From Amoebophrya sp. A120 (lineage: Eukaryota; Protista; Dinoflagellata), in assembly GCA_905178155.1 (NCBI GenBank), contig CAJINV010000001.1, forward strand, positions 4,174,795 to 4,238,794: DNA of 64,000 bases, given 5' to 3'. Shown here one piece after another: positions 8,801 through 63,465 of the stretch; the stretch's first letter is position 1; every line of letters starts with the position of its first letter. Position numbers and translations under genes: made by a program. The notes under the pieces are model-generated. The model made no database searches. It saw only the letters and a list, made by a program, of their open reading frames with translations, and was not told where the DNA came from.

Positions 8801-11800
8801 CGGGGGAAATTTTTTGATGAACTGCCGCTTTTCCAAATCCAGGTCCAGCTCCAGAACTAGTACGAACCTACAGCTCGTCCAGACGCCCCGGGGCGGGTTG
8901 CTGCACAAAACCGGCTCCTTGACGGCGGATGAGCAACTCCACCTGGCGGACAGGGACCACAGAGGCTCCTCGAAGGACGCGCGGAGCAATTTTTTCGATG
9001 TCCTCGACCTGGACACGGCGGACGACCAGATGAACTTCGTGCTTCACGTGTTTGGCAATTTGCAGTGGAACTTGACAGTTGGCTCTACCTCCATCGGAAT
9101 GAAATCTACTTCGAAAAATAACGCTGACGACGACGACGGGGGGTCCTCTTTGTTACACCCAACGATCTCCGATCCAGGAACGATGCACGGTCTGGTAGTG
9201 CCGCACTTGACCCACTTCATGCGGTCCTCTAGCACTTCCTCCGCATCCATTTTCCCCTTCGCATCGAGCTCGTGCTCGCGGCAGCCGCCGCCCGCCAACG
9301 ACGCGACGGCGATCCTACGGGAGGTCAGGCTAGCGGAGACGGGCCTGCGTCAGTACTGCAGCGCGCTGCGCTTGGCGTACATCCCCAACGCGTATCTATC
9401 AAAAGGAAAAATCCCCCCACCCCATATCGAAATGGGAATCTGTGATGCGGGATTTGTGTACACAAATGATCGGCTTTGTCTTGCAATAGAGGACTGCAGA
9501 CAGATACGAAGCCGGATTAGGGATGTTTTGGTGTAGGCGCCTAGCAAGGTATGGGCATTCTCTGTAGGCCAGACAGCATCACAAATTGCCTGCATAACGC
9601 GGCGGGGTTTTTTTATTTGTCTTCTTGCACTACTGAGACGATTTGTGGCCTCAAATCAGCATGACAAATTTTGAGAAGTATCCCGTTCTGGTATGGGGAG
9701 GGGGGATTTTTCCTCTCAATAGTATCACAACTATCACCACGCACTGAACACGCTGCATTTGTGCTCGCAGTACTTGTCGGGGACGAAAAGCGCGGGAAAA
9801 ACCTTGCTGTACAGCCTCGAGGTATATCTTCACGCAGAGATAGGATTAGGAAAATCAACAAGTACAAGATTATCATATGTCAGTGCTTTTTTCCTCTACC
9901 AGGTCCTGATCCTCGCGCCAGTGAAACAAGCACAACACACTCACATCATTTGAACTACACCTGGCGAAGAGGAAGATGAACGCCGGTTGAAGTCTTGTAA
10001 GCCCCTTACTTTTCGTTTTCAGTGAAGATTCAATATACAGAGAACAATGACAATCATGAATGAAAATTTGTAAATCAAAACGAATAGGTGCTCACTTGTC
10101 TTTGTGCTGCTCTGGCGCACGACGTTGGCCACCGCGGCTTTACCAACCCGTTCGAAGTTGCCACGGGTTCGGAGCTTGCCATTTTCTACAATGATAACTC
10201 CGTCTTGGAAAATATGCACGCCTCTGTCGGTTTTTCGCACGCGGAGCGCTTCATCCTACCAAACTTGTTCCACGTAGTCGACGCGCAGGCAGCACATCCT
10301 GTTCCTGAGGCTGGTGGGGCGAGCTCCTCGAGCCGCTCTAGTGCCGGTTCTAGCTGCAATATTTCCAGCATCACTGCAGTCTCCGCTTCTCCGGCTGCAG
10401 CAGCCGAAAGAAGTTGTATAATCGAGGCTGAGCAGGCAGAGAAGAAAGACAATTCGGCTGAGCTTGTGCAAACCGAAGCGATAACAATAAACACATCAGC
10501 GAACAACGGCGCAGTACCAGACCAGCACAGCTTTTCCAAATCGTCATCGTCAGGGCCAAGCACCAGCAACCCCGTGAGAGCAGGAGGACCAAGGTACGAG
10601 AAGGTAGGTCGCGAAGTGTGGCGGCGGTTCCGCAAGATTTTTATCGAGAGTATTTTGGGCACGGATATGGTGCACCACGAAAAGCAAGTGAAGGCCGCTT
10701 CCATGCTCGCGACGCAGCGCAAGCACTCCATGATCAACTCGGCTACACCATTTTTTCCGCCCGGGGTTTCGAACGGTGCCAGCAGCGGAACTGCTCGGGC
10801 AACCGAAGCAGGAGGAGCTTCCTCTTCTACATCTTGCAACACGAACACCACAGCTGCAAATACTAAGCCACAAAAGGCTGCACCCTCATCCGCCGAGAAC
10901 GATGACGTTGTTGTAGAAGCTTCCGCGTCCTCCGAAGATGCACTTCCTCCACGCGACGAGGACTCTAGTGGGTCTACAGGTGCAGCTGCATTGGAAGTTG
11001 TTGTGAGGAGCAAGGATAAGGAAATAACAAGCTGCGCAAAAAATATTAGGTCTTCTGTGATCAACACGACGACGCCAACAAGGGCGGACCACTCGACGTC
11101 CTCTTTCCACCTCGACGAGACCGGTCGGTCTCAGCTCGTGGAATTGGTGTTGCACACCGCGGACATCGGGAATGGGTGCCAGCCGCTCTCCGTCGCGTTA
11201 CGGTGGAAGGACCGAATTCTCGAGGAATTTTCCAACCAGGCCGCGGAAGAGGCGAAGGTCGGTATCCCGGTGACGCCGTTCATGCTGAACCTGCACGACC
11301 CGATCGTGGCCGCGAAGAGCCAGATCGCCTTTGTCGGCTTCGTCGTTGCCCCGTTGATGCAGATTGTCAGCCCGCTGCTGGGGCTGGACACCTACATGGA
11401 GTGTATGTACTCCAACACCCAGTACTACCAAGACATCGTCAACGCGAATAACAAGCTGGGGCTGCAGCAAGCGGATACTCATAACTGTAATGGGAGCAGT
11501 TCTTGTTCATCTTCTGGCACAGCAGTTTCTGGTGCAGCTGTCGCCACAAAAAATACAACTAATACTAATACAGCAGGAGCCAGTTGCGCTGACACGTCGA
11601 AAAATGGAGGAACCAAGACGAAAAGTAGAGGAGCACCACCAGGCGCCGCGAGGACCACCACGAAGGGGCCGCTGAGCAAGACCTCGGACAACTGCAGCAA
11701 GGATGTTGCGCCACTAGCACTGGAAGAAGAACAAGAGGACAAGGTGTCAAATGCGGACAACAAGAACGGAGCAAACAGCAAAGCGACCACCACGACCACA

Positions 11801-14800
11801 GCGGCTTCCTCCGACGAGCAAGACGCAGTCACTATTTACGGACAGAACGACGCTGTTAATCACCACCAGGAAAATCAGCAGGAGTCTAGTTGTTCGCTTT
11901 ACCCAGCACCGACAGGCTCGTCCTCAGCTTCCGCTCCGAGCAGCGTGACGAACGCGAAGAACTACAAAGTTGGACAAGAACTCGAGCAGAACTACGAACA
12001 ACAGCTACAGCACGATCTCCACGACGAGAGCGGGAACCATAATCTTCAGGAGGCTACTTTATTTTCCCGGCATGGCACCAACGACAGCGACAGCTTTGAT
12101 GTGTACAACATTTTTTCCCGGCATGGCACCAACTTATGTCTTCAACGGTCGTTAGCATACAGAAGGGTGAATTTGCAGTGAATTTGTATTGCGTGGCATG
12201 ATGCATGAATTAATCTTCAGGTGCATGCGAAGAACTAGAACACGAGGACAACATACAAGAAGCCAGCGCGCCGCGTTGATGGGCTGCTTGGCTGGTGGCG
12301 CTTCCCTCCTGTGGACGCTTGCCGCTTGTTGCCCAAAGAGGCGCACCTGGTGGACTGCGAAGCAACGCAGGTGGCTTAGGGCGGTCTTACAACACGACGC
12401 TGCATGATCCGCAGACTCGATAGTGGCGGATCGACCGGGACGAGGGCTATGCCTGTAAAGGGGGTCAAAGGTACTAGCTCAACATGTCAAAATAGAGAAG
12501 TCGCGTCACGGGTTGTGGCTGCCTCGGCTTGGATATCTGGAGACAGGTTGCTACGGATGCTAGCATCGCCTGCTTTGCTCTGTAAGTAACCTCCTCCCAG
12601 CTGTGTTCCTGCCTCATCTTGGTCGGTTCCTCTAGTAGTCTTCTTTGACGTGACCCCCAGGTCAGGAATTCTCTTGGTGAATTTTGAGGCTTTGTCTTTT
12701 TGCGAAACTTTTTTGAAGCCCCAAACTCGGAGTTTCTCACGCGCTAGCGAATTTTGAACAGGCACCGGAACCCAAAATTCACCGGCGCCCTTTTCAAAAT
12801 TCACCCGAAAACTCACCGAGCGCCCCTTTTCGACCGTGATAAGCAAACTTTGGCGCAGAAAAGTGCTCAAAAATGTGCACAGGTAGGCCCTGGGGAGTGG
12901 GGCCGAGGGGAAAAGACAAGCGCCCTCTGTTGCCCTCAGCCCGTCTATATTCTGCCGAAAAGGCCTGGGGAGTTCACGCGCCTGCCGGGTAGAGGCGTGA
13001 AAGCTCTCGGCCTGGTCCTTTCACTCGTTTTTTTGCGCCTTCTTCCCTAATTGCATGTGCTTCGCAGCCTTTCTTTTTAGCGTCTTTGCCGCGGCTGCTG
13101 CAGTGCTCTATGCGAGCACAGGGAGACGAATAGACATGGCCAAAGAACGGCACCCAGGCCATGCCTAGAAGCTGCCCGCCGCATAAGTAAGCCTTGACTT
13201 CTGCGGTGTGCAGAACCCACCTCCCAGAAGGGCAAGAAGGATAATGCCCCGGCGGACTCATCTGCAATCTGTCATGCAAAATTCACTACAAATTCGCCAC
13301 TTCTCATGCTAACGGGTGTTAAAGCTGTAAGCACCAACGACAGCGACAGCTTTGATGTGTACAACATTTTTGACAGCTATTCATTGCGACGCGTTCCGAT
13401 GAGATAAGTAAAAGCGGAACTTCGTGGAATTTTGCGTCTCGAAAATTGCCAGCAGGGCACTGCGTACCCCGCCCAGGCAATATTGCCCCATTGAGTAGAC
13501 CTGCGCGATGTTTTGTAGCCCTGGCTCCCAGCTGTTCTTTGTGTTTTTTTTATTTATCGCTGTGTATTCTTTTCCAGGTGGGCCGATATTGTGTCGTGGG
13601 GCAGGAACGATAGCCGGAGTGGGCGCTTAAGCGCCAACAAGCAACAAGATAACACTTCGTGGGCTCTCCGGGCAATAACAATCGGAAGCCCTGCAGGCCT
13701 CTCCGTCAATATTACCATGTGCGCGGGGCCCGACAAGGGCCACAAATTCTGCGCCATTGGCCTGCGAATACGCCAGACGGAACAGACAGAAGCTCTCTTT
13801 TTGCCCTTTCGTGGCGAGGCCCCTTTCGTGGCGAGGATTCCTTTCGTGGCGAGGCCCCTGGCTACGTTCATTGGCCATCCTGCCTTTCAAGTGCCACCCC
13901 TTAGGAATTTGCTTGGAATTTGCTAGGAATTTGCTTGGAATTTTCTTGACTTTTTTTTGGAATTCTAAGCAATTTCTCTGCATTTTGTCTGGAATTTGTT
14001 TGGAATTTCGCTCAGAGAGTTCTGGAATTTCGTCATAGCGTCGTGACTGGCAAATTCCAGATAAATTCCAAATGAATTCCAGACAAATTTCTTACAAAAG
14101 AAAAACAAAAAGAAAATAAATTTCTGGCACATGTCAAACAGAGGGAACCCAGAGGACTAACACCTCCGACCTAGGTCGCGACCTAGGTCGCGACCCACCC
14201 GGAAGCAACCACAAGACAACACAAGAACTCTTCCAAAGTCCGGGACACAAGTGTCCGATATGGCACGACACCCAAGCGCCACACTCCGACAACGGGTGCC
14301 AGAATAGGGCCAGCAGGCGCAAAAGCTACAGCTTTGCCCTGCGTGGGTAGTTCGGGTCTAGGGCTGTGAATAATTGGCACAAGATATAAGCTTCAGGCTA
14401 TGGGGATTCGACTACCCTCAACAGTACGGCGTTGTTGTCTGTTTCCTCACGCTTGCGTTTATCTTTAGGGGCCCCCATATTTGGACAGAACAAGACGCGG
14501 GTAGTCTACCGCGATAGCCTGCGCCCGAGAATGCGCCGATTTCTGTCCCTGCGAAAACATCTTTCACACAGCGACCGCGTGGCTGTTCGCTACGCTGCGG
14601 CTCCGGCGCTAAGAAGTTTTTTTTCCCCGAGAAATTCCACGAAATTCCGCTCAAATTCCCTCATCGTACGCGCTGACAGCGACAGCTTTGATGTGTACAA
14701 CATTTTTGACAGCTGCACGTCGGGCGAAGAAAATAATTCGGAGATGAATGGGGAAGACTTTTCCGCAAACAGCCCGATGCTGCTCTTCGAAACAGCATGT

Positions 14801-17900: not shown

Positions 17901-19476
17901 CCTCGTCTGCTGCTGCGTTTTTTTAGCAAACACGTCTTAGTGTCAGGGGTACTATATTTTTTATTGAAGTACAGACAGGGATTACTTTAACTTTTTTTTG
18001 GTTTTGCAGCAAACATCGAGGGTTGTACGAGAATGGTTGAGAAATATTTTTAGCTTCAGTTGCGTTTTCGATTCTTTTGAATCTTCCAGCTGAATTTGCT
18101 ACAGCCAATTATTTCAAGATCGAGGGTGTATTTTACAAATGTCGACTGAAGAAGGTGAAGGTGAGGGCGGTGAAGTACACACTGGCTGAGTACGTTTGCA
18201 GCTTTGAAATTGAAAATAGTGTTTCATCTTCCAGCCTGGTGCTTTTCCTTGTCCTTGCTTATGTTTTTATGATTTTAGCCGAGCTTTTGTTTATTTTTTC
18301 TGTTTCGAACTTTTATTTTCCTACGACCACTCTGAACTCCTGCCATGATTATGATACTACAGGACTGCACCAGCAAGAAAAGTAAACTACAAGAGTTGGA
18401 TATGATCACGTTGACGTTGGGGTTGGGATGTCCGATGTCTTCCGACGCGGATGCCGATTCACTTTCAGTTTGACGCTATTGCAATATCTATGGGGATCAT
18501 AGCCGCATCCGTATTGTTCCGGACGCGGGTGCCTTTGCATCTCGACGATGGATGTACATTTTTATTTTCTTCAATTTGGGGAGCGAGAGCTGCAAAAATG
18601 AATTTCAACAAATGTCCGACCTTCATTCCACTTCGTAGTTACTTACTTGTTTTTGATTTTCGTAGATCATGACATGAGTTTTTAATGGGTCGATTTTATT
18701 AAGCGATACGTACTACAGATGACCTCGAGGTTAGTTTAGTGGTCCCTCGTTAAAATAAAATGGGTGTCAGTGATGTTGGCGAAGATACTAAACACTCGGG
18801 CAGCAGTGGTTTTTTTTTAATTTTTTGAGTGCGACCAACGGCAACGGAGGCACAGGCACCACGTAAGAATGTGAGTATACCAAGTATCAATTTCTTATCC
18901 TAGGAGAAGCCAGCGCGATCGCCTAGAAACAAAGCTCGCCCAGCGGATGAAAATCGTGCGCTCCCTGAAGCCGTTGTTCGTTTCTTCTTGTCCTTTCTTC
19001 TAGGCAGCTGCTACAGCTTCATCCGTATCTCGTCCTGTCTAGTAAACTGCTTCCCGTCCGAGCGAGCATCAATTACGGATCATGATATCAACCGGTGGAG
19101 GAGAGCTTCGAGTATCAAAATTTCGACTGGTACATCTGCACAAAGGCCACAGAAAAGTCTAGGTCGTGCTGACAGTGTCAGTTGTCATATGAGTGTGAAG
19201 ATGTTGCAGTACTACAAGTAGAAGTAAAGATTTCTGCTACTTCTAGTTATCCTGTAGTACAACTTGATTCTGTTTCATCCGTTGCTCTCTTCTTGCAACC
19301 ATGTTTCATCCGTTTCTTTGTTTTTGTGTCTCGTCCCAAAGATGCAAGTGCTCAGTAGTACTATGTAGACATATTATTTCCCGTAGGACTAGTAACTTTC
19401 GCCTCCCCATAAGCAACATCATCAGCACTGTAGTTACTGTTTGCAACTGCCTGCACCAACTTGACACAGCAGGGAC

Positions 19477-21703
19477 GTGATGGCGCCGTTGAGGAGAAGC
19501 AACTCTCCTATCTGTTCTGTGAGCTCTGCCTCTGCCGCTGCCCTGGTGGATATTGCCAAACATGATGAAGAAGAGACCACTACAACAACAAATCTTGCGG
19601 TTTTCGATCCGACAAGACTAAGACATCAAGCCGACGCAGAATCACGACAATGTCCGCCGCCGACCGCCTTCCCGCTTTCCTACGCAACAGCAGTGAGACT
19701 CGGCAGAGTCGCATTGAAAAATCAGGACCGCGAGGGTCGTTCCAAGCATATCGCTATCGGGCAAGCGGAACACGACATATATCAACCGTCGTCGAGGCCC
19801 GCTCCTTCTCTTACCCGACTCATTGCCTACTACCTGGTCCACAGCTGGCGGTGTTTCGGGTACGTTCCCGCGTTTCTCTACGCGGCGAAGACCCAGCCAT
19901 TCAAAGTCTTGCTGACCACCGCGATTCTCCAGGCGGTTCGGGCCAACAACCCCCGCGTCTCCTTCCTAGTGCACCTGTTTTGCTCCTACGGGTCGAGCAG
20001 AGAACCCAGATTTGTGAACGCGGCACGGAAGATATCCTGTGCAAAAGTATCGCACTCGTAGTAATCGCAGTCATGCATTACAAATCTCCATCCCAAGGCA
20101 AAACAGCGTCACAAATTCCAATTGTCATGCTGAGCTAATTTGTATTGCAATTACTACTAGTGCGATACTTTTGCAGTTCATAGAAGAAACTCTATGACAA
20201 AAACAGCGCGAAGCCGAGCCAGTACCTCGCGACCCTCCACCCCCACGGAATTCTGTGCTATCCAGGAAAAAAAGTACTTATGTAAGTGTAACTTTCTTTG
20301 AGAAACAGCATCACAAATTTGCTCTACATGACAGAGAAAACCTGTCATGCGTGGCGTGTAAGGGAAAACACACACGAAAAGAGGACTTCGTGGCTGTCTG
20401 GCATGACAGGCGTAACTCTGTTGCATGTTCTGCAACACAAAGTTACACTTACACAGTTTTTTTCTTGCATATGTGCTGCGGGTGGTTCAATTTGATATCC
20501 CGGCTTGCCCTGGATTGGTCGGCCACCGACCGGCTAGAGATCATGGACGGCCTGCCCGTGTTTCTCTGCTTCGCGCCGATGATCCAGCACTTGCCCCTCC
20601 ACGGGGACATGTACATGCAGAACTGCGGGGACGCGAGCGGCAAGACGGTGCGGCGAGTTCTGCAGACCACGAGGAAGACGCCGGCCATCGCGCCGGGCGG
20701 CTTCAGCGAGTCGGCGTACTGTGGGTGGGACATGGAAAAGTACGAGGTCGCGTATCTGCTGCAGCGAACCGGGTTCGTCAAGATCGCGCTGGAGCAGAAG
20801 GTCGATTTATTGCCGGTGTACACCTTTGGCAACGACAACATGTACCTGACGTGGGATTTGTTCGGCACCCGGCAGCTGCGGGCGGAGTGGTCGCAGAAGA
20901 TCGGACTGCCGCTCCTGTGGTGGAACGGAGCCGACCCCTTCGGGTGCACGAATTTACCGAAGACGGAGGACTTGGTGACGGTCGTGTTTGACCCGTTTGT
21001 GACGGAAAAGTATTGGAAGAGGCTGGAAGAGGTGTTTATTCGGGGAGACACTACCGCTACGAAGGCAACGAAAGGAGAAATAAAGGGAGTGCAGCCCGGC
21101 ATGGGCGCGACGACCCAAAGCAAAAGCAAGAAGAGTAAAACGAAAACCGGTACAGTTACCAAAACAGCCTACGAAAAAGCGTTGCAGGCTGCTGTAGAAG
21201 AGTGCCACCGTGACTATTTGCAGTACCTGTGGCGGTGCTTCGAAGAGTACAAGCACGTGACACCAGCGTCGGCAAAAAAAGCTCTGGTCTTCGCCGGCCG
21301 GGGACAAAAACCGATCGTGCCGGATGTGGACTGGTTGAGAAAAGAGCAGCAAGCGCACAGAAACGTCAGTGAAGAGCAACACCGTCGTCATTTGGAAGAA
21401 CGGCGAAGGGAAGCTACTACACGCACTGGAAGTCGTTCGGGTAAGAAAACGCGGCCGACGTCTCCGTCACGGTCTCCGAACAAAAGACCCCGTCCGCCGA
21501 CTTCGTCGCCGCAAGATGAGAGTAACAGCGTCGCCGCGATTTCAGTGCTAGGCGCAGCAGGACCAGTGGGCAGCACCAGCAGCCGCGATCAAGCATTTCC
21601 AATCGCGGTTCGTATCTCCTCGACCAGCACATGTTCGAGCGACCGCGCGGAAGAATTTTTCACCCACCCGCATTCTATTGTGCGTTCTTTGAGCAAATAT
21701 TAA
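19477..21703 (+). CDS. DGAT2: Diacylglycerol/monoacylglycerol O-acyltransferase, DGAT2 family
   Basis: After removing two TIR inserts the frame reads ARKKLYDKNSAKPSQYLATLHPHGILCCGWF. It contains HPHG, PGGFSES, RTGFVKIAL and PVYTFG. Confidence 0.88.
20033..20182. mobile_element. Introner-like MITE 2 (150 bp), TSD GAAGA
   Basis: TIR core tgcaaaagtatcgcact / agtgcgatacttttgca. TSD at 20028-20032 and 20183-20187. Same family as 50063-50217. Confidence 0.93.
20259..20471. mobile_element. Introner-like MITE 3 (213 bp), TSD TGTGC
   Basis: tatccaggaaaaaaa..tgtaagtgtaacttt versus aaagttacacttaca..tttttttcttgcata. TSD at 20254-20258 and 20472-20476. Confidence 0.9.
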
Positions 21704-21829
21704 ACCGAAACACACCATCCTGCCATTCGCGTCTGCGTTTGAGTTGGTGAGGATTCATTCATGTTTCGTCTTCTATTTCACACTATCACTAGTTGTGAAG
21801 ATCGAAAATCCACAAGTTCGGTGATGTCT

Positions 21830-23280
21830 GACCTGTGACTATGAGAATGAAATCGAAGATAGTAAAACAGAGGCATTGTACAATTGAGATTCTTTTGCTT
21901 TTGGTTTTACTTCTACTTCATTTGTATCAGTTTCCATCGTGTAACCAAAAAAAAACTTTTTTCTTATGTAACCAAAATAAAAAGACCTGGAAGAAGAGAC
22001 GCTTCCTTGCGAATACAATCATCATCCACAGATTTTCATCTTGCCATGGAAGAGGATCTTTCCATCGAATCAATGAAACACTTCCTCCACCTGATATTGA
22101 TATGGACCTAAATCGAAAAATCACGAACGATGCCATGGATCGATTTATTTTCATATTTTTGAGTTTTTCCTGAATCATGGTCATTTCTTTTTCTATCGTT
22201 ATCGAAAATCAAATGAAATGAAGAAGATGGGATGTCATATTCCGGATCTGGAAGATGTCGAGATAGAGTCCATTTATAAGGTCAAGATGAAAAAGAATCC
22301 TATCCAAAATTTCGAATTCGTTGAGGTGATATTTCAAAGCATTATGAAAAATATAATAAAAATTTATTTGCAAAATATTCAAAGTAAGGGGGTATTCGAA
22401 TATTCAATTTTGAGGGTATCCCACATATGATATTATATTATGAGAAATTTATGCAGAATTGAATTCCCATGATCATTCATTGTTTGTTTGTTTGTTGATG
22501 AAGGTCATGTGGAATCATTTGGAAATTGTTCTTTCCTCTCACAATTGCATTCCTCCTCTCATTTCGATTGGAATTTTTAAAGATCTGAAATTATCAAAGA
22601 TTATATTCTTGATCTTCCCTTTGAAATTCTCAAAATTTCTTAATATATTCATATCTCCAAATGTAATTTATTGATTCGATTCATGATTTATCATTTTCGA
22701 ATCTTGAGATGGAGAACAGAGATTTTTTGTGGAAAAATCGAATGTAATCGAGGATCATGATCTGAAAAAAATATTATAATGAATTCCATATTCCGAAAAT
22801 TTAAATTCGATTCTCGATAGAAAAAAAAAAACGAAGAAATGAATGATTTTTTTTTTTGAGATTGGAAATAAATTCGATTTCCCATCCTTCCATCGAGATT
22901 CCCAAAATCTATCATGAAATATATTTGATTTTGAATCTCGGATGATACATATCATAAATTTAAATCCTATTCCGACATGATATGATCAAAAAGAAAGAAC
23001 AACACACACAAAAAACAAGATGGACACAAGATTTTTTTTCAGACGATAAATAATGATGAGAATCAGATCGAAAAGATTCATTTCTATTGAGAATATATTG
23101 ATCGAGGATGAATAATCATGGACCAGACCTGAGTCTGAGACAAATTTGAATCATACCCAGTCATGAGCCGGTCTATGAAGAGAGAAAGAATTGAAAATTT
23201 TTTGAAGATGAGTCGAGATGAAGCGCTAGAAGGAGGATTGCACAGATTGACATGCAAGAGCAGCAACATCAACATCTCTA
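21830..23280. other. AT-rich island at the convergent strand-switch point
   Basis: Abrupt compositional change with many TC/GA dinucleotides and few GC, and no credible ORF. It lies between the last + gene and the first - gene. Confidence 0.7.
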
Positions 23281-23346
23281 TATCTTTTTACTCTTGAAAA
23301 GAAAGTAGGGCGAGTCTTCTTCATAAACATCAGGTTGTTTCTGAAA

Positions 23347-26300: not shown

Positions 26301-26556
26301 AGTCTTGTCCACCGGTGGCAATTTTGAAAGCAGACCGTGACAGGAACAGTCCGTCTTCGTGCACTGTAAAACATTTGCTATTCTGCTGCTGCTCGGGGCC
26401 GTCGTCAACACCAACAGGAGCACGCTTTTGGTTTTTGTGTAATGTGCGGGTCGACTGCTCCGGCGTGGTCAGAAGCGCGCCGGTCGATTTAGACGCGGCC
26501 ATCTCGTCGTGCGGTTGTCGTTTTTCAAAGCTAGATAAAAGGGGCGCTTCGGCCAT
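23347..26556 (-). CDS. Hypothetical protein locus (ORF blocks 25147-26556, 24071-~25210, 23347-23994), probably one spliced gene
   Basis: Long acidic ORFs on the same strand and an AAAATGG start context at 26556. Junctions are unresolved and no family is recognised. Confidence 0.55.
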
Positions 26557-27083
26557 TTTGGAATTACTTGCTTACTCACTTTTCGAAGATGACGATATAG
26601 TAGATGCGTGTTCTTTATGTCAAAGCAATCAAATCAGTAGATTCTGCGCAGTAGAGAGCAGCAAGCAAACGGCGTTGACACAGATCTGTAAAAAACTGAC
26701 GTCGAGGCCCTCGGCGACCCGACATACTTGCATCGCACTGAGACAGACAACAGATCATCGCAATCAAAGTCAATCAATATTTTTGAAGAAGAAGATGTCC
26801 ACTCTTTTTTACGCTTATGTATGATCCGCATCCGGCGTTTTTCGTTAGAACTTCTTGTGTTCATCAACAGTTTTCAACTGGAAAGGCACAAACGCAGCAT
26901 GTACTTACATGATGAACGCGCAGCATTGAAATTCAAAAGCATTGAAGTTCCCTCAAGCCGAGACCTTATATCGAAGGGAAGCATCAAGTTGATCTGTTTG
27001 TATACGCAATGCCTGAGAAGTGTACATGTGTCGATATCTTTGCAGAATCCGCTTGACTTTATCAATTCAGTAAGCGATTTCTG

Positions 27084-35619: not shown

Positions 35620-38600
35620 TCAGAAATCCGTCCCACCCGCCGCTGGGTTCATCTCAAAATATACGGATTTTGTGTGACTTGCGTGGTCCAAGGCTTCCTC
35701 GCCGAATTCCCGTCCGAATCCGCTTTCCTTGTAGCCGCCCACGGGCACGTTGGGCGCGTAAATGTTGTACGTGTTACACCAGACGATACCGCTCTGCAGC
35801 TTGCTCGCGACGTAGTGCGCGCGCTTCAGGTCTCGGGTGAAGAAACCGCTCGCGAGGCCGTACGGTGTGTTGTTCGCACGGAAGAGAACCTCCTCGGTAT
35901 CGGAAAATTTGAACACCGAGGCTACTGGGCCAAAAACCTCTTCTTTCGCCAATGTGTGGTCATCTTGCACATCCGCGAAAATGGTTGGTCGCATGAACGC
36001 GAGGGGGTTCAGGTGCGGCGCCAGCCCCGTGGGAGCCTCGTTGCCACCCGTGACCAGCGTTGCGCCCTCCTGCTGGGCTTTGGTGATGGCGTCGCGGACC
36101 TGTGGTGGTGGATACGAGTGTATAAGATCCAAAACTGCGATCCAATGCATTCTATTTTGGTATTGATCAAACCAAAAGATACAAATTAGAGAGGGCCACA
36201 ACGAACTTAGTACAACGTAGGACGTACCGAATCCGCATGCCCCACGTCCACCAGCGCGCCAATCTGCGTCTGCGGGTCCTGCGGGTCGCCTACGCGGAGC
36301 GCGTCGGAGTGCTGGATAAACGCCGCCAGAAACTCGTCGTAGATGTTCTCGTGCACGAATATCCTGGTGCCGTTGGTGCAAATCTCACCGGCGGAGTAAA
36401 AGTTTGCGATCATGGCCGCTTTCACAGCGGGGATGATGTCCGCGTCCTCGAAGACGATCAGTGGCGATTTGCCACCCAGTTCCAACGTGCAGGGTTTGAT
36501 TGTGTTGGCCGCCATTTTGAGAATCTTTTGTCCCACGGGGGTGCTGCCGGTAAAGGAAATCTTGTCGACGCCCGGGTGTTCGCAGAGCGCGGAACCCTGC
36601 TCCGAGCCGCCTTGAACCACGTTGAAAACGCCGTCAGGCAACCCAGCTTCCGTGAACAAGCTCGCGAGGCCCATGGTATTTATCGGAGTTTTAGAACTCG
36701 GCTTCATCACGATGCTGTTGCCTGTGGATAATTTCGGGTGAGAGCAAATTGCCCGGCAGGTTGTTGCGCATGATAGATAAACCAAAACAGGTATAGATAC
36801 TGTGTCAAGTTTAACGAAAAAAACATGAAAAATCACCTGCCGCCAAGAGTATGCTTGCTTTGTAAAGCGCCATGTTGAAGGGGTAGTTCCAGGCTACTAT
36901 GGCGGCGCACACGCCGTACGGCTCGCGTAGGCACTGCGCGAAACTGCCATTTTATCAAATGTAAAAATGTCTGGGTCTGGAAGAATGCAAGTTTGTCATG
37001 CTCGTCTGGCATGACTCGGGAATCTGTGTTGCACAGGCACGAAAAAGCCCTCTTACCTGTCATGCAGAAACGCAGTTTGCCATGCGGAATACGTAAGACA
37101 TGGCAGCCAAGAAATTTGTCATGCATAGCTGCGTATTGCAGTGCGTCTATCATTCATTTTTAGCATTACAAGTTTCCAGACCCAGACATTTTTGCACTTG
37201 ATACATTTTCCAGCGGTATGATTTTTCCCTCGTGCGTGCTCGATGAGATACCTAAAAGCGGAATTTCGTGGAATTTTGCGTCTCGAAAATTGGCAGCAGG
37301 CACTACGTCCCTCGCCCGGGCAACATTGCCTTTGCCTTGCCCCACTGGGTAGAAGACCTGCGCGATGTTTTCTCGCCCTGGCTCCCAGCCGTTCATCTTT
37401 GTGTATTTTTTATTCTCGGCGTGCCCTTTTTTCCAGGTGCGCCGATTTTGTGTCCTGGGCCAGAAACGATACCCGGGGGGAGCGCGTAAGATCCAACTCG
37501 CACCAAGATAAAGCTTCGCGGGCTCTCAGGACAATAACAATTGCAAGCCATGCAGCGCCTCCCCTTCAATATTACCATATGCGTGGGGTCCGACAAGGGC
37601 CCCAGAGGACTAACACGACCTCCGACCTAGGTCGCGACCCACCCGGAAGCAACCCAAGACAACACAACTCTTCCAAAATCCGGGACACAAATATCCGATA
37701 TGGCACTACACCCAAGCGGCACATTGCACTACCGGGCGCCAGAATAGGGGCAACAGGCGAAAAAGCTACAGCTCTCGAGCGGGTAGTCTACCCCGATAAC
37801 CTGCGCCAGAGAACACGCCGGCTGCTGTCCCTGCGGAAAAATCTTTCACACAGCGACCGCACGGCTGTTAGCTACGCTCCTTGTCCGGCGCTGAGAATTT
37901 TTTTTTCTCCGAGAAATTCCACGAAATTCCACCCAAATTCCCTCATCGGATATGGAACTGTCAGGATCGAAATTGGCAAAATCGAATAAAAACTTGTGAT
38001 GCATAAAATGCATGACGCGAAATACGTGTGTTGCAGAGCAGGCAAGTGAGGCCGATTGTAAGTCTGTTTGGGGTTCTAGCTCGAGCTGCTAGGGCAGCAT
38101 GAGAGAATCAGTGTTATTTGCCTAAGCAGCATTACAAACTGGATTTAGGCACCACCAAAATTTGTGATGCGCCACTTAGAAACTGGGTTCGGACTGGAAT
38201 CCATTTTATGCATGACAAATCATTTCGATTTTGTCAATTTCGATTCTGACACTTCCATATCGGATGCGCCAGCGGTATGATTTTTCCCTCGTGCGCGCTC
38301 GATGTATGGATCTGTCAGGATTGAAATCGTCAAAGTTGAAATAGTTTGTGATGCGTAAAATGCAAGGCATAGAGTGTCTGTCTTGCCAGGATGGCAAGTG
38401 AGGCAGATTGTGAGCCTATTCAGGGTTTGGGATAGAGCTGCAAAAGGAGCATGACAAGAGCAGTCTTCTGTGCCCAAACAGCATGACAAATTGGATTCCG
38501 GTGCTCCGAAAACTTGTCATGCGCCACTTGGAAATTGGTCTTCCAACTGGTATCCATTTTATGCATGAGAAATCATTTCAACTTTGTCGATTTCAAACCT

Positions 38601-39235
38601 GACGCTTCCATACGATGCGAGGTTGGCGTAGTACTCCAGGGTTTCTATTCCCGCCTCCACATGCGCTGCCGTCGTTTCTGCGATGCAGTGCCCGCTGTCT
38701 CTCGTCTCCATCACCGAGATTTCTTGCTTGTTCTGCCGCAGGATTTGCGCTGCCCGGTGCATCACTTTGCTCCTTTCCATGCCCGTCATGCTCGACCACT
38801 GCTTGAAGCCCGCGCGCGCAGACTCCACGGCGTCGGACACTTCGGAGGGCGTGGTTTCTGAGTTTGGGTTTAGAGTTTTTAAGCAGGTGCGAGCATTGTA
38901 GTAGTTGTGAACTTGAACTTGATGCTATCGATGTTTCATGAAAAACAAGCTGAGATGAACTCTTCACACCTACCATGTATTGTGGCGATCTCTTCATCGG
39001 TCGCCGGATTTGTGGAAACAAACGTGTCTCCCTCTCCGAACCTTTCCGCGCCGTCAATGTAGTGGCCTACTTTCAGCGCTTTCGAGCTCATGGAGCGGAT
39101 GCCCCGATGTGCGATTCTGCCTGGTGCAGTCCACGGGGAGGAGGAGCGCGCTGACGAGAGCTGGCGGGAAGCGACAGGACCTCGTCTGCACACATGGTGC
39201 ATCAGCGCAGAACTAGACTGTGACAACGCCGCCAT
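35620..39235 (-). CDS. Aldehyde dehydrogenase, ALDH9/betaine-aldehyde dehydrogenase-like
   Basis: REPYGVCAAIVAWNYP, FTGSTPVG, LELGGKSP, GEICTNGTR, EEVFGPV and GGYKESGFGRE. GT-AG introns at 38858-38973, 36722-36836 and 36100-36227, plus non-canonical inserts between 36953 and 38612. Confidence 0.93.
36953..37203. mobile_element. Introner-like MITE 4 (251 bp), TSD CATTT
   Basis: 30-bp TIR tatcaa(a/g)tg(t/c)aaaaatgtctgggtctggaa. TSD at 36948-36952 and 37204-37208. Removal gives PLEN|GSFAQ. Confidence 0.94.
37241..38269. mobile_element. Family-B element, internally deleted copy, flanked by a 36-bp direct repeat of the ALDH micro-exon; contains MITE 5
   Basis: Colinear with 13398-14673. 37210-37245 matches 38269-38304 with one mismatch. 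Confidence 0.85.
37951..38259. mobile_element. Introner-family MITE 5 (309 bp), TSD TCGGA, nested in the end of element B
   Basis: TIR tatggaa(c/g)tgtcag(g/a)atcgaaattg(g/a)caaaatcgaa. TSD at 37946-37950 and 38260-38264. Confidence 0.92.
38305..38612. mobile_element. Introner-like MITE 6 (308 bp), TSD CGATG
   Basis: TIR tatgga..gtcagg(a/t)ttgaaatcg(t/a)caaagttgaaat. TSD at 38300-38304 and 38613-38617. Removal gives YYANLAS|SAHEGKIIPL. Confidence 0.93.
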
Positions 39236-49200: not shown

Positions 49201-50932
49201 AGTAGATGTAGAGTCTTTTACCTCTTGCCCAACTTCTTCCTCCATTTCTTCTACCAATACCGTCTCCCCCTCTGTAGTTTCTGCGTTCTCTCCTCCTGTC
49301 GAAGTCGATGCGTCTGACACCGTATCTCCCACTTCCGTTATCTCGACGAAAAACGACGACCCGGCTTGTCGTTCCGCCGCGGACCGGCGCCGTTTTTGCT
49401 TGTCCAGGCGGCTCTCGTTCTCCAACACGGAAAAGAAACCGTTGTTGTCGAAGTAGTTCGCGAGAAATTTCGGCCGCATGGTCTCCTCCATGATTGCGAA
49501 TCCAGACTCGACGCTCGACGTTGTGGCCACCTGGTTCAGCAAATTGCCGTCTTCCACTGTCGACGACTTTTCCCCGTCCTCCATGACCAGCGCTGCCTCC
49601 ATGGCATCGTACCGGGAAGCGTCGAAATCGAACGAGTGCTGGAGCAAATCCGCCTCGTACTTCGCGAAGAGCAACTCCTTTTTCGAGAGAGGTGCGACAA
49701 TCGGGTCCAAGGCCATCACGGAGGACAGATATGAAAGTGCACAACTCCCCCTCCCCCTCATTTGCAATGCAAAACCCCTAATCCAGGCTGTTCGGTTCCT
49801 CTTGGCACTATTTGCATGACAAGTTCTGGTAGCCCAAATAGTACTATACTCCAGCGCCAATTTGTCATGCAAAACCGGCAGTCTGACTGCTGCTTGTATA
49901 ATTGCCGCTCATGCTATACAGAAAAAGGGGAGGGGGAGTTGTGCACTGTCATAACAAAAACGCCTCCTGCAGCCGCCCGGTCAGAACGTCCGCGAACAGC
50001 ATGTCGCCGATCAAAATCGCCGGCGGGTGCCACACGGGAAAAAATTGCTGCAGATTGCGAAATATGCATGGCAAAAGTATCTTATTAGTATATAATTGCA
50101 TCACAATTTTTTTCAAGAAAAAAAATGGAATTTGTAATGCTGATTTACATATAAAAGGCATATTTGTCATGGTGCATGATAGCAATTACTACGAGTGCGA
50201 TACTTTTGCACAGGATACGAAACGCAACGAACTGCTTCACCAGCTTCTCCACGTCGCCTAACTGCCCATAATTCCGGAGCAACGAGGTTCGAACCCGCAA
50301 CGCGGTGCGCATCAAGACGAACCGGACGTTCGGCGCGACGAGATGGGCGGCGATCTGCATCGCGGTGTCCAGCATCTCCAGACTCGCCTTCTTCAAAGCG
50401 TAAATCATCGCCACCTGCCGCATTTCCGCGGAGGCTTGCAGCAATTCCGGGATCAAGAAATCCTGCTGCCAGTCGTCGTTCCCGCAGTGTTCGTCTAGAT
50501 TTTGCAAGGCTTTGTAGAACCAAAAGCCCGCCTGGAGAAAAGACCCGACGACCTGGCTCTGCATGTCGCAGTAGGGGACGAGGTCGAGGTAGCCCAAACC
50601 TATTTTCACCGGGTCCCACTCCGTTTCGTTGAACTGGTTCCACTCGTCGCCCCACTCCCTTATCATCCCTGTTTCGTAGCTCATGTACGGGCGGAGCGCG
50701 AGTCCCGGAAAGCTCAGGTGCGGAAAGACCGGCGTGGTCGGCGGGTCGTGAAGGGGCTCCAGGGTCTCGAGGGTTTCGGTATTTTCTTCCACTAGAATCC
50801 TTTGGAGTTGCAGTGTCTCGGAGAGTTCCGCGATTGCCTTTGCGGCGGACTCGTGCAGTTCGGGGAAGCCGGCGCCCTGCCACAACATCTCCTCGAGCTG
50901 CTTCAAGGACCACATCAGAGGAGAGGCGGCGC
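46214..50932 (-). CDS. Large hypothetical protein with Cys-Cys motifs and a C-terminal PAN/Apple-like domain; 5' end unresolved
   Basis: ORF blocks join through MITEs 7 and 8 and GT-AG introns 48207-48304 and 46433-46570. SAALCAEVCRLIPACKFWS..CWLK is PAN-like. An AG acceptor near 50933 suggests more upstream exons. Confidence 0.75.
49730..49953. mobile_element. Introner-like MITE 7 (224 bp), TSD ACAGA/ACAAA
   Basis: 27-bp TIR tatga(a/c)agtgcacaactccccctcccc. Removal gives EAFL|SSVMALDP. Confidence 0.92.
50063..50217. mobile_element. Introner-like MITE 8 (155 bp), TSD CGAAA
   Basis: The gene-sense 5' end tatcctgtgcaaaagtatcgcactcgtagtaat is identical to that of MITE 2. TSD at 50058-50062 and 50218-50222. 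Removal gives FVAF|RNLQQ. Confidence 0.92.
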
Positions 50933-58495: not shown

Positions 58496-58894
58496 TTTGG
58501 GTGGTCAGGCTGAACTCAAATGTGGCACATTTGGATTTTTTGCAAACAAGTTTTTACACTTCAAGGACAAAGAGAAGATGATTTTTTATACAGAGGCTCT
58601 AACTTAAAGTTCGAGCAGAAGGAGAACTGCGTCAAGCTTTGTAGTTTGGGTCCTGTAGGTGGTCTTTTGACATTGTCTATCAACGTTGTGGGCAACACAT
58701 ATGAATGAGATGCTCACGTACCGACACTTTCTTTCGCAACGGAGACGCTCGAACACGTGCACGGCCAAAAAACGACAGCAGATCAATTTCTTCGATGCCC
58801 CAATGAATTCATGATGGTTGTACCAGTGACAGTGTCGATTTTCATTTTCTGAAAAGCAAAAGGCAAGCATATGCAGCCTGCAAGAATAAAAATA

Positions 58895-61436
58895 TCAGTG
58901 TCCTTCCAACGTTGCTAGCTGAATCAGCCTGGGTTCCAGTCTGTTTTCGCAACTCAGCACCGCCAACCGACACCTGCAGCAGACGACGACCAACAACGTC
59001 GCTCCGAGCGCGATGAAGTTGTGCCCCAATCCTAACAGATCCCGGGCCAGATTCGACAAAAGTAACACGAACAGCAACCCAAAACCGCAAACAACTTCGA
59101 CCAACCGCAACATCCGCTCTTCGGCTGTCAAAATGACTCGTATCCGCGACAGCCGTAGCCCTGCGCGGAAGGTTAAAATTCCGACAACAGTGATGCAGGG
59201 CAGCCACTTGACCCACTCCGGTATTCGGTGGAGCTGAACGAGAATCAAACTGGCCACGGTCCACACGCTGATCCACGCTACCACCGACCTCTGCCGGATG
59301 AGAACGCCGTAGGTGCCGGTGAAGCAACAGGCAATCAAGATCCAGGTGGTCACGTGAATCGGAATGCTGTATTACAATGAAAAATGCCCCCTCCCCATAT
59401 CAAAACGGAAATCTGTGATGCAGATTTGTGGTCACAAATCAGCTTTGTGTTGCTACAAGGCAAAAGATGCGGACTGTAGTGCTGTCTAGCGTGGGAAAGC
59501 CTTGCAGCTCCAGGATGACAAAAGGCAACACAACTGGAAGTCGGAAACAGCATGACAGATTGCCTGCGATTGAGGCCGCAGCTTCGTCTCTTGGCCTTCT
59601 AGCAATACATTTGTGTACTCAAATACAGCATCACAAATTCGCGCATCTTCCGTTTCCGATATGGGGTGGGGGCTTTTTTCACTTTGATATGCTGACGTAT
59701 TTCGCGGGGTGCGAGGTCGTTCCGGCGATGTCCGGGTCGCACGTGATTTTCGTTTCTGTCGTGTGGTCGTAGGTCCAGGTGAGCGGGATTTTCTTCGATA
59801 AAAACCGGTACAGCGAGACTTCCGCGATCAGCGAAATCAAGAGGAAGAAAACCGCCACGACGCCAATCAAAATCCTGGGCGTCACCTCGGTGATCAAACT
59901 GGGATTATTCGGCGACCCGAGCAGCTGCGCTCTGCGTTCCCGCAAACAGGATTTCATGTAGCTGCAGGAGGAGAACCAGCTGAGCAGCAGGAGGACAAAG
60001 CCCAGAGGGTAAAAGGCGAAAACCGGCCAGAACACCGTCGACCACTGCAGGTTTTGTTTTTCTTCGTCGACGGCTTTGAGAAGAGAAGGAAGGGTCGGTG
60101 GAGATCGATCTTCATCTTGTCTTGCGGGAGGTTTTGTCGCTTCTACATGTTGACCCTCGAGAAGATCGCTCCTCTTACTCTTTTCTTGATCTACCTCACT
60201 GGACGGTGAAGAAGCTTCCGATGAGACTAGGTCGCTGGCTGGGTACGAAGGTGGTGATGGTGATGCTGTTTTTTCTTCTTCAAAGACGCCTGTAGCACTA
60301 GGACCCCGTAGAAGCCCGTTTGCGGCCGATGTTGCTGAAGTTCTTGCTCTTTCTAGTATCGTGTCAGAACGCGGTGGCGGAATGGCATCTAAACCCGGAG
60401 CCGCCACACTTGTCGCATCTTCCGATCCTGCTTTCTGCACAAGATGTTCACGACCTTTGTAGTCTTCGCTGTTTCGTACCCGTGCCTCTCCTGCTCTGGT
60501 ATTACCTACTTTCTCTTCATCTTCTGCTGCAGCCACTACAGGCACGGGTCCTTCTGCCGCATCTTCTACTTCGTCTGTTCGTGCTGTTGACAACAAATTT
60601 CTATTCCTTCCGCCACCTTCCGAGCCAGCTCCGGTTGTGAAAAACTCGAACATTTGCGGCGACGGAGCGCGCCGGTCGTCGTGGTCGTCCTCCTGCATTT
60701 CCTGCAGACGTTGGTCTGGCGGCAGTTGCCGCTGCTGGTACGCATTTGGGTCTTCTGGACTCGGTGTCAGCCGCGCGGCAATGATCCTTTCCCGGTTCCT
60801 CACCGAATCTAAATTGCAAACACGTTCAAACTGCAACACCTTCAATCCGACAAGCACAATCGCAATACCGTGGGCCGCGACAAAGAGCAATTTTGCGGAC
60901 TTGATCAGCCGCTCGGTGTGGCGGCCGCGGGTGCGCTCTTCGTATGGGTGTGTCAGGATTGAAATCGTCAAAGTTGAAATAGTTTGTCATGCTAAACCGA
61001 CCGAAACCACTACACAGAAATAGTCTGTCATGCATAAAACGGATACCAGTTAGCCCTACAGTTTGTAGTCGGTGCATGACAAATTTTACCGGTCCTGGAA
61101 GCGAGTCTGTCATGCGGTTTAGGGCAAAAGAGCTGCCTTCTGTCATGCTAGTTAGCAGTCCAACTTTTGACCCTTACCAGGACTATGATCTGCGTCCCGT
61201 TGGTCCTCTGCAATAAAGTCACTTTTTGTGTCGCATTTTATGCATTACAAATTATTTCAACTTTGACGATTTCAAACCTGACGCTTCCATACTTCGATAC
61301 CCCCGATTACAAGATTGGAGGACATGCTGGAGATAGCCGCGTCAGCAGGGGATGCGCTGTTTACACTCACGCGGGTCGAAGCTCGGGGGCGGGCTGCGGA
61401 AGATGAAGTGGGGGTAGAGGAAGTAGAGGAAACCAT
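58895..61436 (-). CDS. Multi-pass membrane protein (weak TMEM185/TMEM203-like WSxVFWP motif)
   Basis: One continuous frame from ATG 61436 after removing MITEs 10 and 9 (GGIE|ERTRG and KYVS|IPIHVTTW). The 3' end is uncertain. Confidence 0.75.
59370..59689. mobile_element. Introner-like MITE 9 (320 bp), TSD TGCTG, same family as MITE 1
   Basis: tattacaatgaaaaatgccccctccccatatc versus gatatggggtgggggcttttttcactttgata. TSD at 59365-59369 and 59690-59694. Confidence 0.92.
60943..61291. mobile_element. Introner-like MITE 10 (349 bp), TSD CTTCG, same family as MITEs 5 and 6
   Basis: TIR tatgg..gtcagg(a/t)ttgaaatcgtcaaagttgaaata. TSD at 60938-60942 and 61292-61296. An empty site is visible in the paralog near 62957. 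Confidence 0.95.
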
Positions 61437-62117
61437 AATATTTTGTTCTCAACTGATTTTATCCGAACCTGCACAACCGTAGCTATTGAAGAAAGACGGC
61501 TATTCAAATGTTGAATCTTGCATGCTTGCAGTACTGACTTTCCACGCACGGCCATGATGGTCCTCGTGCTCAACACGGTGCTGGCGCATCTTGACGCTAC
61601 ACAGTCTCACGATCTACTTGCTCACCTTTACTTGATTCATTCTGGCTTGAGATGAAAACTGTTCCATTACTTTCTTTACAAAAGTCGTGTACAACAGTGA
61701 AGACTCTCCTGTACAGTAGCCAGTGCGGTGAGTACGGGACATGCAACGGTGCGGCACTGCGTTTCCTTTCGCTCTTTAGTGATGATGTCTGCGTCTTGTT
61801 GTACGTCATTTGTCATGTTCATCTTCCAGCTTCTACTTTTTGCAAAGCCGCCGGACAACCTAGGTAGATGATGCGCCAACGCACGGAACTCGAACTGTCA
61901 AAAATTCATTCGCAATGAACATCAACTTTAATATTTCTGCACAATACAAGCACTAAGCGGCTTGTTTCCTCTCTCTCTCTGTTTTGTGTGTCAGTGTCAG
62001 CACAGTGACCTATGCACCAGCACTCGATGCCAGTCAGCTGTGCTTTTGATCACTATTTGCAATAGACGCAACTTTCAAAACACATTCAGAAATTTTGCAA
62101 TAGACGCAACTTTCAAA

Positions 62118-63465
62118 AGCAATTTGGCGGACTTGATCAGCCGCTCGGTGTGGCGGCCGCGGTACTAAGGGGAAAAGTTCAAGAATAGGAATCCGAGCAA
62201 AAATTGACTAGGGGGCCCAGCGACGGTACTTATGTGCTGGGTCGTGTTGTTGTAGTTTTTTTGCAGTAGGTACAAGACAAATGCCACACACGGAAGAAAA
62301 AGAGGAAACTACAAAAGGCCGGCTGCGGCCCCACCCCCAGGCTGCGGCCCGGCGCTTCTACGGCCCGGCCACCACCCCGGCCCCGCCCTCGCCCGATGCT
62401 TTTGTTGGCCGGGGAACCCAAAGGGAGCCGGAGCCCAATTTTGTGGCTCTTTCGGAGGGCCAAAAAATCTCAGCGAGGGGCCTCCGCGGGGGCTTTCGCT
62501 GGGGGGTCTTCAGGGGGGTCGATCTTTCTATTCTTGAAAACTCAGCACCCACGCCATGGTGCCGATTTGGGGGCTCAGAGGGGGGGCGCCAATTTGCCGC
62601 TTCCGGACCCTCTTCGGAACCCCCCACCCTGTCCATTCTTGAAAACTCAGCACCGATTGGCAATGGCCTATTTTCATGCTAATCACGACCTATAAGCAAA
62701 AAGGGGCGCGAGTATTGAGGCTGCCGCATGTTTGTAAGGAGTGCCTCCTTCAGACCGATCCGAAAGCGGGCGCGCGCGATGCTCCTGGGCCACCCTCACG
62801 AGCCGCCCTCCGCGGTTTTCCCGCTGGAGATGTACCTCGCCGACCTGCAGTGCGGAATTCATTTCGTCATCTGCTTCTGCGCCCTCGTCGAACCCGCCTA
62901 GCTATTTTTGCAAAAATTCTTATTCTTGAACTTTTCCCCGTAGTACGCGGGTGCGCTCCTCGATGCCCCCGATTACAAGGGTGGAGGACATGCTGGAGGT
63001 AGCCGCGTCAGGAGGGGATGCGCTGTTTAGGCTCACGCGGGTCGAAGCTCGGGGGCGGGCTGCGGAAGATGAGGTGGGGGTAGAGGAATTAGATGAAGCC
63101 ATAATATTTTGCTCTCAGCAGATTTTGATTTTATCCGAACCTGCACAACCGTAGCTATTGAAGAGTGAAAGCTTTCACATGTTGAATTTTGTACGCTAGT
63201 AGTTTTCCATGCACCACGGCCGTGATGGTACAACTCGTGCCCAAGACGGTGGGGCATGTTGATGCTACACAGTTGTCTCACGATCTACTTGCTCACCTTC
63301 ACCTCGTTCTTTCCTGCTTGAGAAAGCTGTTCTGTCTATTTTGATTTCGTTCTAATCGCGGCCACTTCTACAGAGACTCTCCTGCGCAATTTGTTAGAGT
63401 CGCAAGTCGTGCAGTACGGGACATGCCCCGGCGCGGTACCAACTGTGTTTCTGCTCGCTCTTGAA
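62118..63465 (-). pseudogene. Partial duplicate of the upstream region and first ~65 codons of the membrane-protein gene (homologous to 60886-~61780)
   Basis: MASSNSSTPTSSSAARPRASTRVS..LVIGGIEERTR at 63102 versus MVSSTSSTPTSSSAARPRASTRVS at 61436. Homology stops at 62118. Confidence 0.8.
62163..62945. mobile_element. TIR element 11 (783 bp), TSD CGCGG
   Basis: 30-bp TIR tacta(a/c)ggggaaaagttcaagaata(g/a)gaat. TSD at 62158-62162 and 62946-62950. Empty site at 60926-60930. Confidence 0.93.

Follow-up and report, generated by a model that had tools for sequence, protein, structure and literature searches.

TA-ended introner elements with 5-bp target-site duplications in Amoebophrya sp. A120: a strict insertion rule, a shared internal motif and a probable hairpin-guided removal from pre-mRNA

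Introners are abundant in Amoebophrya sp. A120: the accessible passages of Farhat 2021 (PMC7789003) report 29,850 copies with TAT+7 nt+AAA ends and 3-5-nt repeats in a genome in which no U1 was detected, and the legend of Fig. S19 gives a 5-bp repeat example. How tens of thousands of non-canonical Amoebophrya introns are removed has been a question since 2021. Here we analyze a 64,000-nt stretch of A120 (hereafter the window; GCA_905178155.1, contig CAJINV010000001.1, 4,174,795-4,238,794, forward strand), in which eleven inserts share TA ends and 5-bp target-site duplications (TSDs). These inserts are members of the published introner class, since their host exons match A120 proteins at 97% and 100% and their ends match the published motif. 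A first-pass annotation, made from the letters of the window, had rightly treated the broad class as already described; the available text of PMC7789003 already gives the TAT ends, an instance of a 5-bp repeat and a count of about 30,000. What we add are refinements to a known class, namely a strict rule across families, a shared internal motif, strand-neutrality and an element with long direct repeats. Overall, the inserts are probably best explained as MITEs (miniature inverted-repeat transposable elements) with TA ends and 5-bp TSDs, which were spread by one integrase-like lineage and are removed from pre-mRNA under the guidance of their hairpins.

The introners of Farhat 2021 share with our inserts the hairpin, a short direct repeat, non-canonical ends, GT-AG introns alongside and the lack of an internal transposase. 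In the passages available, however, their repeats are 3-5 nt long and variable in position, whereas here the repeat is 5 bp, its position is fixed and one motif recurs across families. Gozashti 2025 (PMC12130899, Dataset S2) describes A120 family 38 as ‘Ginger, 5-bp TSD, TA/TA Termini’; in the part of the dataset at hand, the TA/5-bp rule is stated for one of 58 A120 families, 56 are labelled ‘Unknown’, and the TSD entries run from 2 to 11 or are empty, with 5 in six rows. Among described transposons, IS3EU/GingerRoot elements have TA...TA termini, terminal inverted repeats (TIRs), no target sequence preference and a TSD of usually 6 bp (accessible passages of PMC10045372 and PMC6839031). The termini, the TIRs and the absence of a target preference are found here as well, whereas GingerRoot is described in these passages as favoring gene-poor DNA and the elements here favor coding DNA. 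Ginger1 and Ginger2 differ in their termini, which are TG...CA in the text available, those of our inserts being TA...TA.

With regard to removal, the nonconventional introns of euglenids also combine a TIR hairpin with TSD-like repeats, lack a polypyrimidine tract and occur together with spliceosomal introns, but they show a junction consensus of pyrimidine followed by purine and leave as circles (passages available of the review PMC11282704); no junction consensus is seen here. The same passages describe introns of Fritillaria borealis that resemble ours in MITE origin, in TIRs with TSDs and in their many terminal dinucleotides, but which mostly have AG-AC/AG-AT and are reported to be removed by the spliceosome; our inserts do not show this preference. 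Falsitrons are alike in another sense, in that a hairpin between short direct repeats is lost exactly, together with one repeat, from complementary DNA (cDNA) (Schulz et al. 2021, PMC8240250). They sit in intact exons, whereas the inserts here break frames unless removed. A literature search confined to titles, abstracts and passages, without subscription journals or figures, found no report on Amoebophrya of the internal motif, of two orientations or of a test by direct RNA or for lariats; Farhat Figs. S19-S25 could bear on the first two.

All eleven inserts lie where the first-pass annotation had placed them, with TA(T/C)...(A/G)TA ends and 5-bp direct repeats, exact in ten and with one mismatch (ACAGA/ACAAA) in 49730 (Table 1; inserts are named by their first position). 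A scan of the window by this rule returned exactly these eleven, and 20 block shuffles returned 0 or 1 each. A motif-free scan gave 13 pairs with an exact 5-nt repeat, comprising the ten exact inserts and three weak pairs in repetitive or GC-rich DNA. Ten inserts start with TAT and one (62163) with TAC; seven have a clear A-run in the TIR, whereas 49730 and the 37951/38305/60943 family have a shortened one. Their TIRs define seven families, three shared within the window and four single, in agreement with the earlier estimate of about seven. The duplicates that carry 60943 and 62163 supply each other's empty sites, which hold a single 5-mer, indicating that the repeat was made on insertion. 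TIRs, a TSD created on insertion, uniform family lengths and the lack of a Pfam match in the element frames tested characterize the inserts as MITEs, and TAT ends, a short direct repeat, genomic families, a non-GT-AG loss from cDNA and an A120-type host characterize them as A120 introners. A twelfth candidate at 2356-3011 (exact 5-mer, TIR 15/25, no internal motif) lies across ordinary introns of a phosphatase-like gene and was discarded as likely due to chance.

The same rule holds beyond the window. With the end of one family as bait, we collected 90 stretches of one related public assembly, which make up 89 loci and 442 kb and contain near-full copies of ten of the eleven inserts (none of 62163). 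The bait family is represented by 81 copies with both ends; the TSD is an exact 5 bp in 67 of them, has one mismatch in nine and is missing in five, and an exact 6-bp repeat occurs in 0; these copies are up to 96.5% identical to the window's. Across the 442 kb, TAY...RTA pairs flanked by exact repeats of 3, 4, 5, 6, 7 and 8 nt numbered 15, 8, 225, 2, 0 and 1, respectively, and three shuffles gave 0, 0 and 1. In these loci, the scan for N5-TAY...RTA-N5 that had been proposed from the window thus finds the 5-bp TSD to be near-exclusive. When no terminus was assumed, TAT...ATA still accounted for 212 of the 256 placements with a five-nt repeat; a flanking repeat was lacking in 966 of 1250 inverted-repeat runs, internal stems being among them. 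The resulting catalogue holds 301 elements in 31 TIR groups, including 78 bait-family copies and three internal stems miscounted as nested elements. Lengths are uniform within its families, the consensus ends read T100 A100 T97 with an A at position 13 in 90-92%, and the flat composition of the TSDs reveals no preferred target sequence.

The families are connected by an internal motif, GCAT(G/C/T)ACAAA, which is found in 294 of the 301 elements, about three times per element and on both strands. Its 7-mer is the best in 26 of the 31 TIR groups and occurs 11.9 times per kb inside elements versus 1.6 outside; ten of the window inserts carry the motif. Moreover, the TIR consists of two parts, with positions 4-9 complementary in 51-79% and positions 10-14 in 91-97%. 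A cleavage end with an inner binding site is the layout of IS3-type ends. GCAT(G/C/T)ACAAA may be a transposase binding site. The motif shared between families points to one transposase lineage, and it is quite likely that a single lineage mobilizes the TAT families; the chances that this lineage is of IS3EU/GingerRoot type are about even. The first-pass annotation had assigned all of these diverse MITEs to one lineage, an idea that the shared motif supports for the TAT families and that does not extend to the TAC element, which lacks it; no frame for a transposase was found in the window or in long copies of the loci.

TSD length is set by the transposase, and the TSDs of TA-ended pairs hardly ever depart from 5 bp. 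Additionally, the internal motif and the two-part TIR span most TIR groups. These observations count against a derivation of the families from several unrelated transposon groups, in which the common ends would reflect selection by the removal machinery. We consider such a derivation unlikely, even though the accessible parts of Gozashti 2025 place A120 introners in several classes, with one Mutator family (PMC12130899), and the window itself also includes, besides the TAC element without the motif, a long-repeat family and a TTA...TAA element whose TSD is 8 bp.

Removal of the elements can be read from the coding frames around them. Of the 301 elements, 251 were usable for this purpose (47 were too near a locus end and three were the internal stems). 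When the element plus 5 nt was removed, a frame was called at 172 of the 251 sites, compared with 215 of 831 random sites, and removal of the element plus 3, 4, 6 or 7 nt reduced the number to 53-60. The element length plus 5, taken modulo 3, is evenly distributed (44/45/42), indicating that frame-keeping is not selected. In the window, nine of the eleven inserts break long host frames directly. The first-pass annotation had counted ten interruptions of coding sequence; of its inserts, 37951 is nested in a larger element, and the sequence around 62163 is a truncated duplicate whose frame ends after 79 codons. It is these frame statistics, and not cDNA joints, that argue for removal in the cell, which we regard as very likely; that removal acts on RNA is likely.

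The tests made brought out no ordinary splice signal. As first noted from the letters, none of the eleven window inserts can be slid into a GT-AG register on the transcribed strand. In the loci, a register with GT-AG is possible in 6 of 131 cases, which is near chance, with GC-AG in 4 of 131 and AT-AC in 5 of 131. The orientation of elements to the called gene strand is 25:19, 14:15 and 19:9 in the three largest families, and 38305 and 60943, which belong to one family, lie in opposite senses to transcription. The internal motif is likewise strand-neutral (90 versus 85), the pyrimidine share near the element 3' end is 0.50, and 41 cases in which TSD mismatches could reveal the cut register gave no clear pattern. 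The elements fold as long hairpins. Because all tests are strand-neutral, removal must respond to a symmetric signal, for which the hairpin and the repeat are the candidates. The AG-independent removal from RNA that was originally proposed is borne out insofar as there is no dependence on AG or on GT; the cDNA joints could be made by reverse-transcriptase slippage.

The elements insert at a 5-bp staggered cut without a preferred sequence, mostly in coding DNA, and we propose that an integrase-like transposase acting in trans makes this cut. After transcription into pre-mRNA, the terminal hairpin and the direct repeat, rather than splice signals, would guide cutting, and the element would be excised with one TSD copy and the flanks rejoined.

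The sense copy of the motif that is nearest to the 3' end lies 30-49 nt from it in 86 of 172 elements, and GCATNAC resembles a branch site, for which the consensus is yUnAy. An altered U2 spliceosome without U1, of the kind already proposed for Amoebophrya, could be considered, which would remove the elements as lariats, with the hairpin placing both cuts. This explanation is a serious competitor, although its chances fall below even. A120 keeps U2, U4, U5, U6 and 83 of 89 spliceosomal proteins, with U1 not detected (PMC7789003, passages available), and Fritillaria is reported to splice odd-ended MITE-derived introns by the spliceosome (review PMC11282704, passages available). However, the sense motif is missing in 30 of the 172 elements and antisense copies are as frequent as sense ones, the motif continues as ACAAA, and in six canonical introns, verified or predicted, it does not occur within 70 nt of the 3' end; a reading of the motif as a branch point is not supported on these grounds. 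In contrast to the AG-AC/AG-AT of Fritillaria, the elements here favor no terminal dinucleotide, whichever register is taken, and a fixed 5-nt ruler would leave in place an element with 27-36-nt repeats, described below. The lack of a strand-specific signal and the apparent loss of this element from the same transcript incline us slightly toward a cut-and-join step outside the ordinary spliceosome, to which we give close to an even chance.

Transcript mapping was restricted to 19200-39100, which contains five of the eleven inserts; the other six, including 9397, lie outside. Run X2 consists of cDNA contigs whose RNA status is a guess and which skip four GT-AG introns, and the raw RNA runs X7-X9 show no coverage of the genes in which these five inserts lie. 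In X2, the joint 38299>38613 skips 313 nt, which corresponds to the 38305 element plus 5 (depth 18), the joint 37944>38259 skips 314 nt, which corresponds to the 37951 element plus 5 (depth 3.8), and the joint 36953>38269, mapped on the duplicate repeat, represents the exact loss of the 36953 element plus 5. The exact loss of element plus 5 nt that had been suggested as a check is thus visible in contigs at three of the five inserts, all in the aldehyde dehydrogenase (ALDH) gene. No joint was found for 20033 or 20259 in the mapped reads, by which their acyltransferase gene is barely covered. Likewise, no back-joint (circle) was listed in the mapped contigs and reads of this region, in which contigs and low coverage cannot show absence.

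Reverse-transcriptase slippage gives identical joints, and thus the cDNA joints alone prove little. Taken as the whole explanation, slippage over the hairpin would have made the exact joints in vitro, and the inserts would be kept in the cell or removed at other positions. It would account at once for the strand-blindness and for the joints of the nested and the long-repeat element; with the same anatomy, as many as 70% of cDNA reads showed false introns that were missing from direct RNA reads (PMC8240250). The median falsitron length, 353 nt, is near the element sizes. The genome pattern would remain unexplained, namely the coding enrichment, the restoration of frames by +5 only and the two thirds of elements that shift the frame; moreover, the ALDH frame is otherwise intact and about 30,000 such copies are reported (PMC7789003, passages available). 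We therefore regard slippage as an improbable explanation of the whole.

Even less probable is a loss at the DNA level, in which the elements would be excised precisely and somatically in the feeding stage, or skipped by a polymerase at a cruciform, and would never have been RNA introns. It would agree with the strand-neutral outcome of every test, none of which bears an RNA-level signature. However, X7 reads and X2 contigs join elements to flanks, indicating transcription at some loci at least, and the parasite is not known to have a germline/soma split.

Alongside its GT-AG introns, the ALDH gene carries TAT elements, a long-repeat element and an element nested in the latter. Here the earlier claim that loss of each element with one TSD restores the frame every time fails, because the ALDH frame is still broken until the long-repeat element is also removed. 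Only when the TAT elements and the long-repeat element with one 27-36-nt repeat are taken out does it stay open over its whole length, and the frame repaired in this way aligns with two orthologues across the joins. Neither of the two long-repeat copies has a GT-AG register. The element appears to be lost from the ALDH transcript in X2, as one contig stops on the final 30 letters that both paths have in common, and the contig starting at 38269 needs a second predecessor, which only the joined form supplies; an X2 contig that retains the element has a depth of 7, versus 18-29 for neighboring exonic contigs. For this element alone, slippage is a live reading. A bolder and rather doubtful extension of hairpin-guided removal is a strand-blind, non-spliceosomal ‘undo’ reaction that would cut any hairpin with a direct repeat (5 nt, or at least 27 nt) from RNA with exact rejoining, and would have let one integrase-like lineage with GCAT(G/C/T)ACAAA place tens of thousands of coding copies at no cost.

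A number of observations weigh against a single mobilizing lineage and hairpin-guided removal from pre-mRNA. On the side of the mobilizer, no Pfam transposase or integrase was found in 41 window frames, in line with the first-pass annotation, which had seen none in the window. Its suggested search for long copies encoding a DDE transposase brought up, in the 89 loci, three long copies that end in TA and have an exact 5-bp TSD (L072:4343-7203, L050:2114-3966 and L028:534-1917), which show no Pfam family and resemble carriers of other inserted DNA; the 13 frames taken from long elements had no Pfam match. The 783-bp TAC element 62163 is without the motif. The first-pass annotation had named IS3EU, with its 6-bp TSDs, and hAT5, with 5-bp ones, as inexact fits. 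For IS3EU so it proves: the TA ends agree, and the TSD is usually 6 bp there and 5 bp here (exact 6-bp repeats in 0 of 81 copies, and 2 versus 225 pairs). In the accessible passages of Farhat 2021 (PMC7789003), no A120 introner transposase was found and a general mobilization by transposase is argued against.

On the side of removal, G-U pairs in the stems are no more frequent than A-C mismatches (189:199), and this lack of a bias gives no sign of selection on an RNA stem. The gene strand was assigned by a codon model, and wrong calls would hide a real strand asymmetry. The transcript evidence is all cDNA, from a single run of guessed RNA status, and a hairpin between direct repeats is a known signature of reverse-transcriptase slippage (PMC8240250). 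In addition, 71 X7 reads link a foreign flank to the end of an element of the 36953 family, indicating unremoved copies in RNA at some locus, and the public gene model P0121 keeps 59370, reads into the insert and stops.

Strand-neutrality is a constraint on any proposed mechanism, and the strict definition by TA ends, 5-bp TSD and motif can be used both for a transposase search and for the correction of gene models, two of which, in public data, are wrong or truncated at inserts. The published A120 transcript support is cDNA-based in the passages available and is thereby exposed to reverse-transcriptase slippage.

Table 1. Positions of the TA-ended inserts and of the two long-repeat copies in the window
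Element	Position	Size and direct repeats	Context
TAT...ATA element	9397..9721	325 bp, TSD GTATC	cyclic-nucleotide phosphodiesterase gene (+), just before the PDEase_I profile start
TAT...ATA element	20033..20182	150 bp, TSD GAAGA	DAGAT-family acyltransferase gene (+); 189/432 open codons only at +5
TAT...ATA element	20259..20471	213 bp, TSD TGTGC	acyltransferase gene of 20033, right after an HPHG motif; 213/408 open codons only at +5
TAT...ATA element	36953..37203	251 bp, TSD CATTT	ALDH gene (-); orthologues contiguous there
TAT...ATA element	37951..38259	309 bp, TSD TCGGA	nested in long-repeat element, outside coding sequence
TAT...ATA element	38305..38612	308 bp, TSD CGATG	ALDH gene (-); single long hairpin fold, z -9.9
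TAT...ATA element	49730..49953	224 bp, TSD ACAGA/ACAAA	unnamed 755-codon frame (-); frame evidence only
TAT...ATA element	50063..50217	155 bp, TSD CGAAA	gene of 49730; family of 20033; frame evidence only
TAT...ATA element	59370..59689	320 bp, TSD TGCTG	membrane-protein gene (-); frame 467 -> 620 codons on loss
TAT...ATA element	60943..61291	349 bp, TSD CTTCG	membrane-protein gene of 59370; family of 38305, opposite orientation to transcription
TAC...GTA element	62163..62945	783 bp, GC-rich, TSD CGCGG	truncated 5' duplicate of the 60943 gene; without shared internal motif
Long-repeat element	~37237-38268	~720 bp without nested 37951; repeats 37210-37245 / 38269-38304, 27 nt exact, 35/36	ALDH gene
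Long-repeat element, second copy	13379-14674	between 40-nt direct repeats (13339..14714)	3' part of phosphodiesterase gene; 80-88% identical to ALDH copy

The host genes encode a phosphodiesterase, a DAGAT-family acyltransferase, ALDH and two unnamed products, and, as had been noted, ordinary GT-AG introns are present in genes that carry inserts. The best named match of the ALDH exon is an Amoebophrya sp. A120 protein (97%), followed by an A25 protein at 82%, and the exon 59697-60941 has one match, an A120 protein at 100%. Model P0121 contains the exact element-plus-5 join at 60943. Model P0001 (35620-40975) fuses a riboflavin-synthase-like gene to ALDH and has one ALDH exon out of frame beside or upstream of inserts. 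At the membrane-protein gene, 60881-61652 and 62114-63323 are 84%-identical duplicates of its 5' end and upstream DNA, and each insert lies about 12 bp from the insertion site of the other copy.

The long-repeat family, of which two copies are in hand, has short TIRs and 27-40-nt direct repeats, and no further copies were found in the 89 loci or in viral contigs. Its target in ALDH resembles the element's own end, and the phosphodiesterase copy is longer by about 10 bases at one of its ends. An in-frame tandem duplication of 51 bp (12062-12133 / 13331-13378) overlaps the 40-nt repeat, and this site was hit three times; the duplication could be the footprint of an earlier element. The TTA...TAA element at 12134-13330 likewise falls within the phosphodiesterase gene's 3' part. 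It is 1197 bp long, with imperfect TIRs and the 8-bp TSD GCACCAAC, a rule unlike that of the TAT elements. Its size is near that of A120 families 103 and 135 in the accessible part of Gozashti 2025, and its 177-aa frame has no Pfam match.

Elsewhere in the window, an intron-free 1204-codon frame at 29104-32718 is covered by 1158 X9 reads with a few G>A differences; considered as a transposase, it looks ion-channel-like instead (atlas score 0.90, a lead only). An Rfam search gave no match. The intergenic stretch 41600-43700 is GC-rich (up to 68%), with many overlapping frames and no Pfam match in the four tested, and is likely a decayed mobile element. An AT-rich island at 22000-23100 (30% GC) contains many GAT/ATC words and is unlike its surroundings. 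Finally, a near-perfect GC-rich palindrome cluster with the core CCCT(T/A)(T/A)AGGG occupies 63560-64000 and reaches the end of the window.

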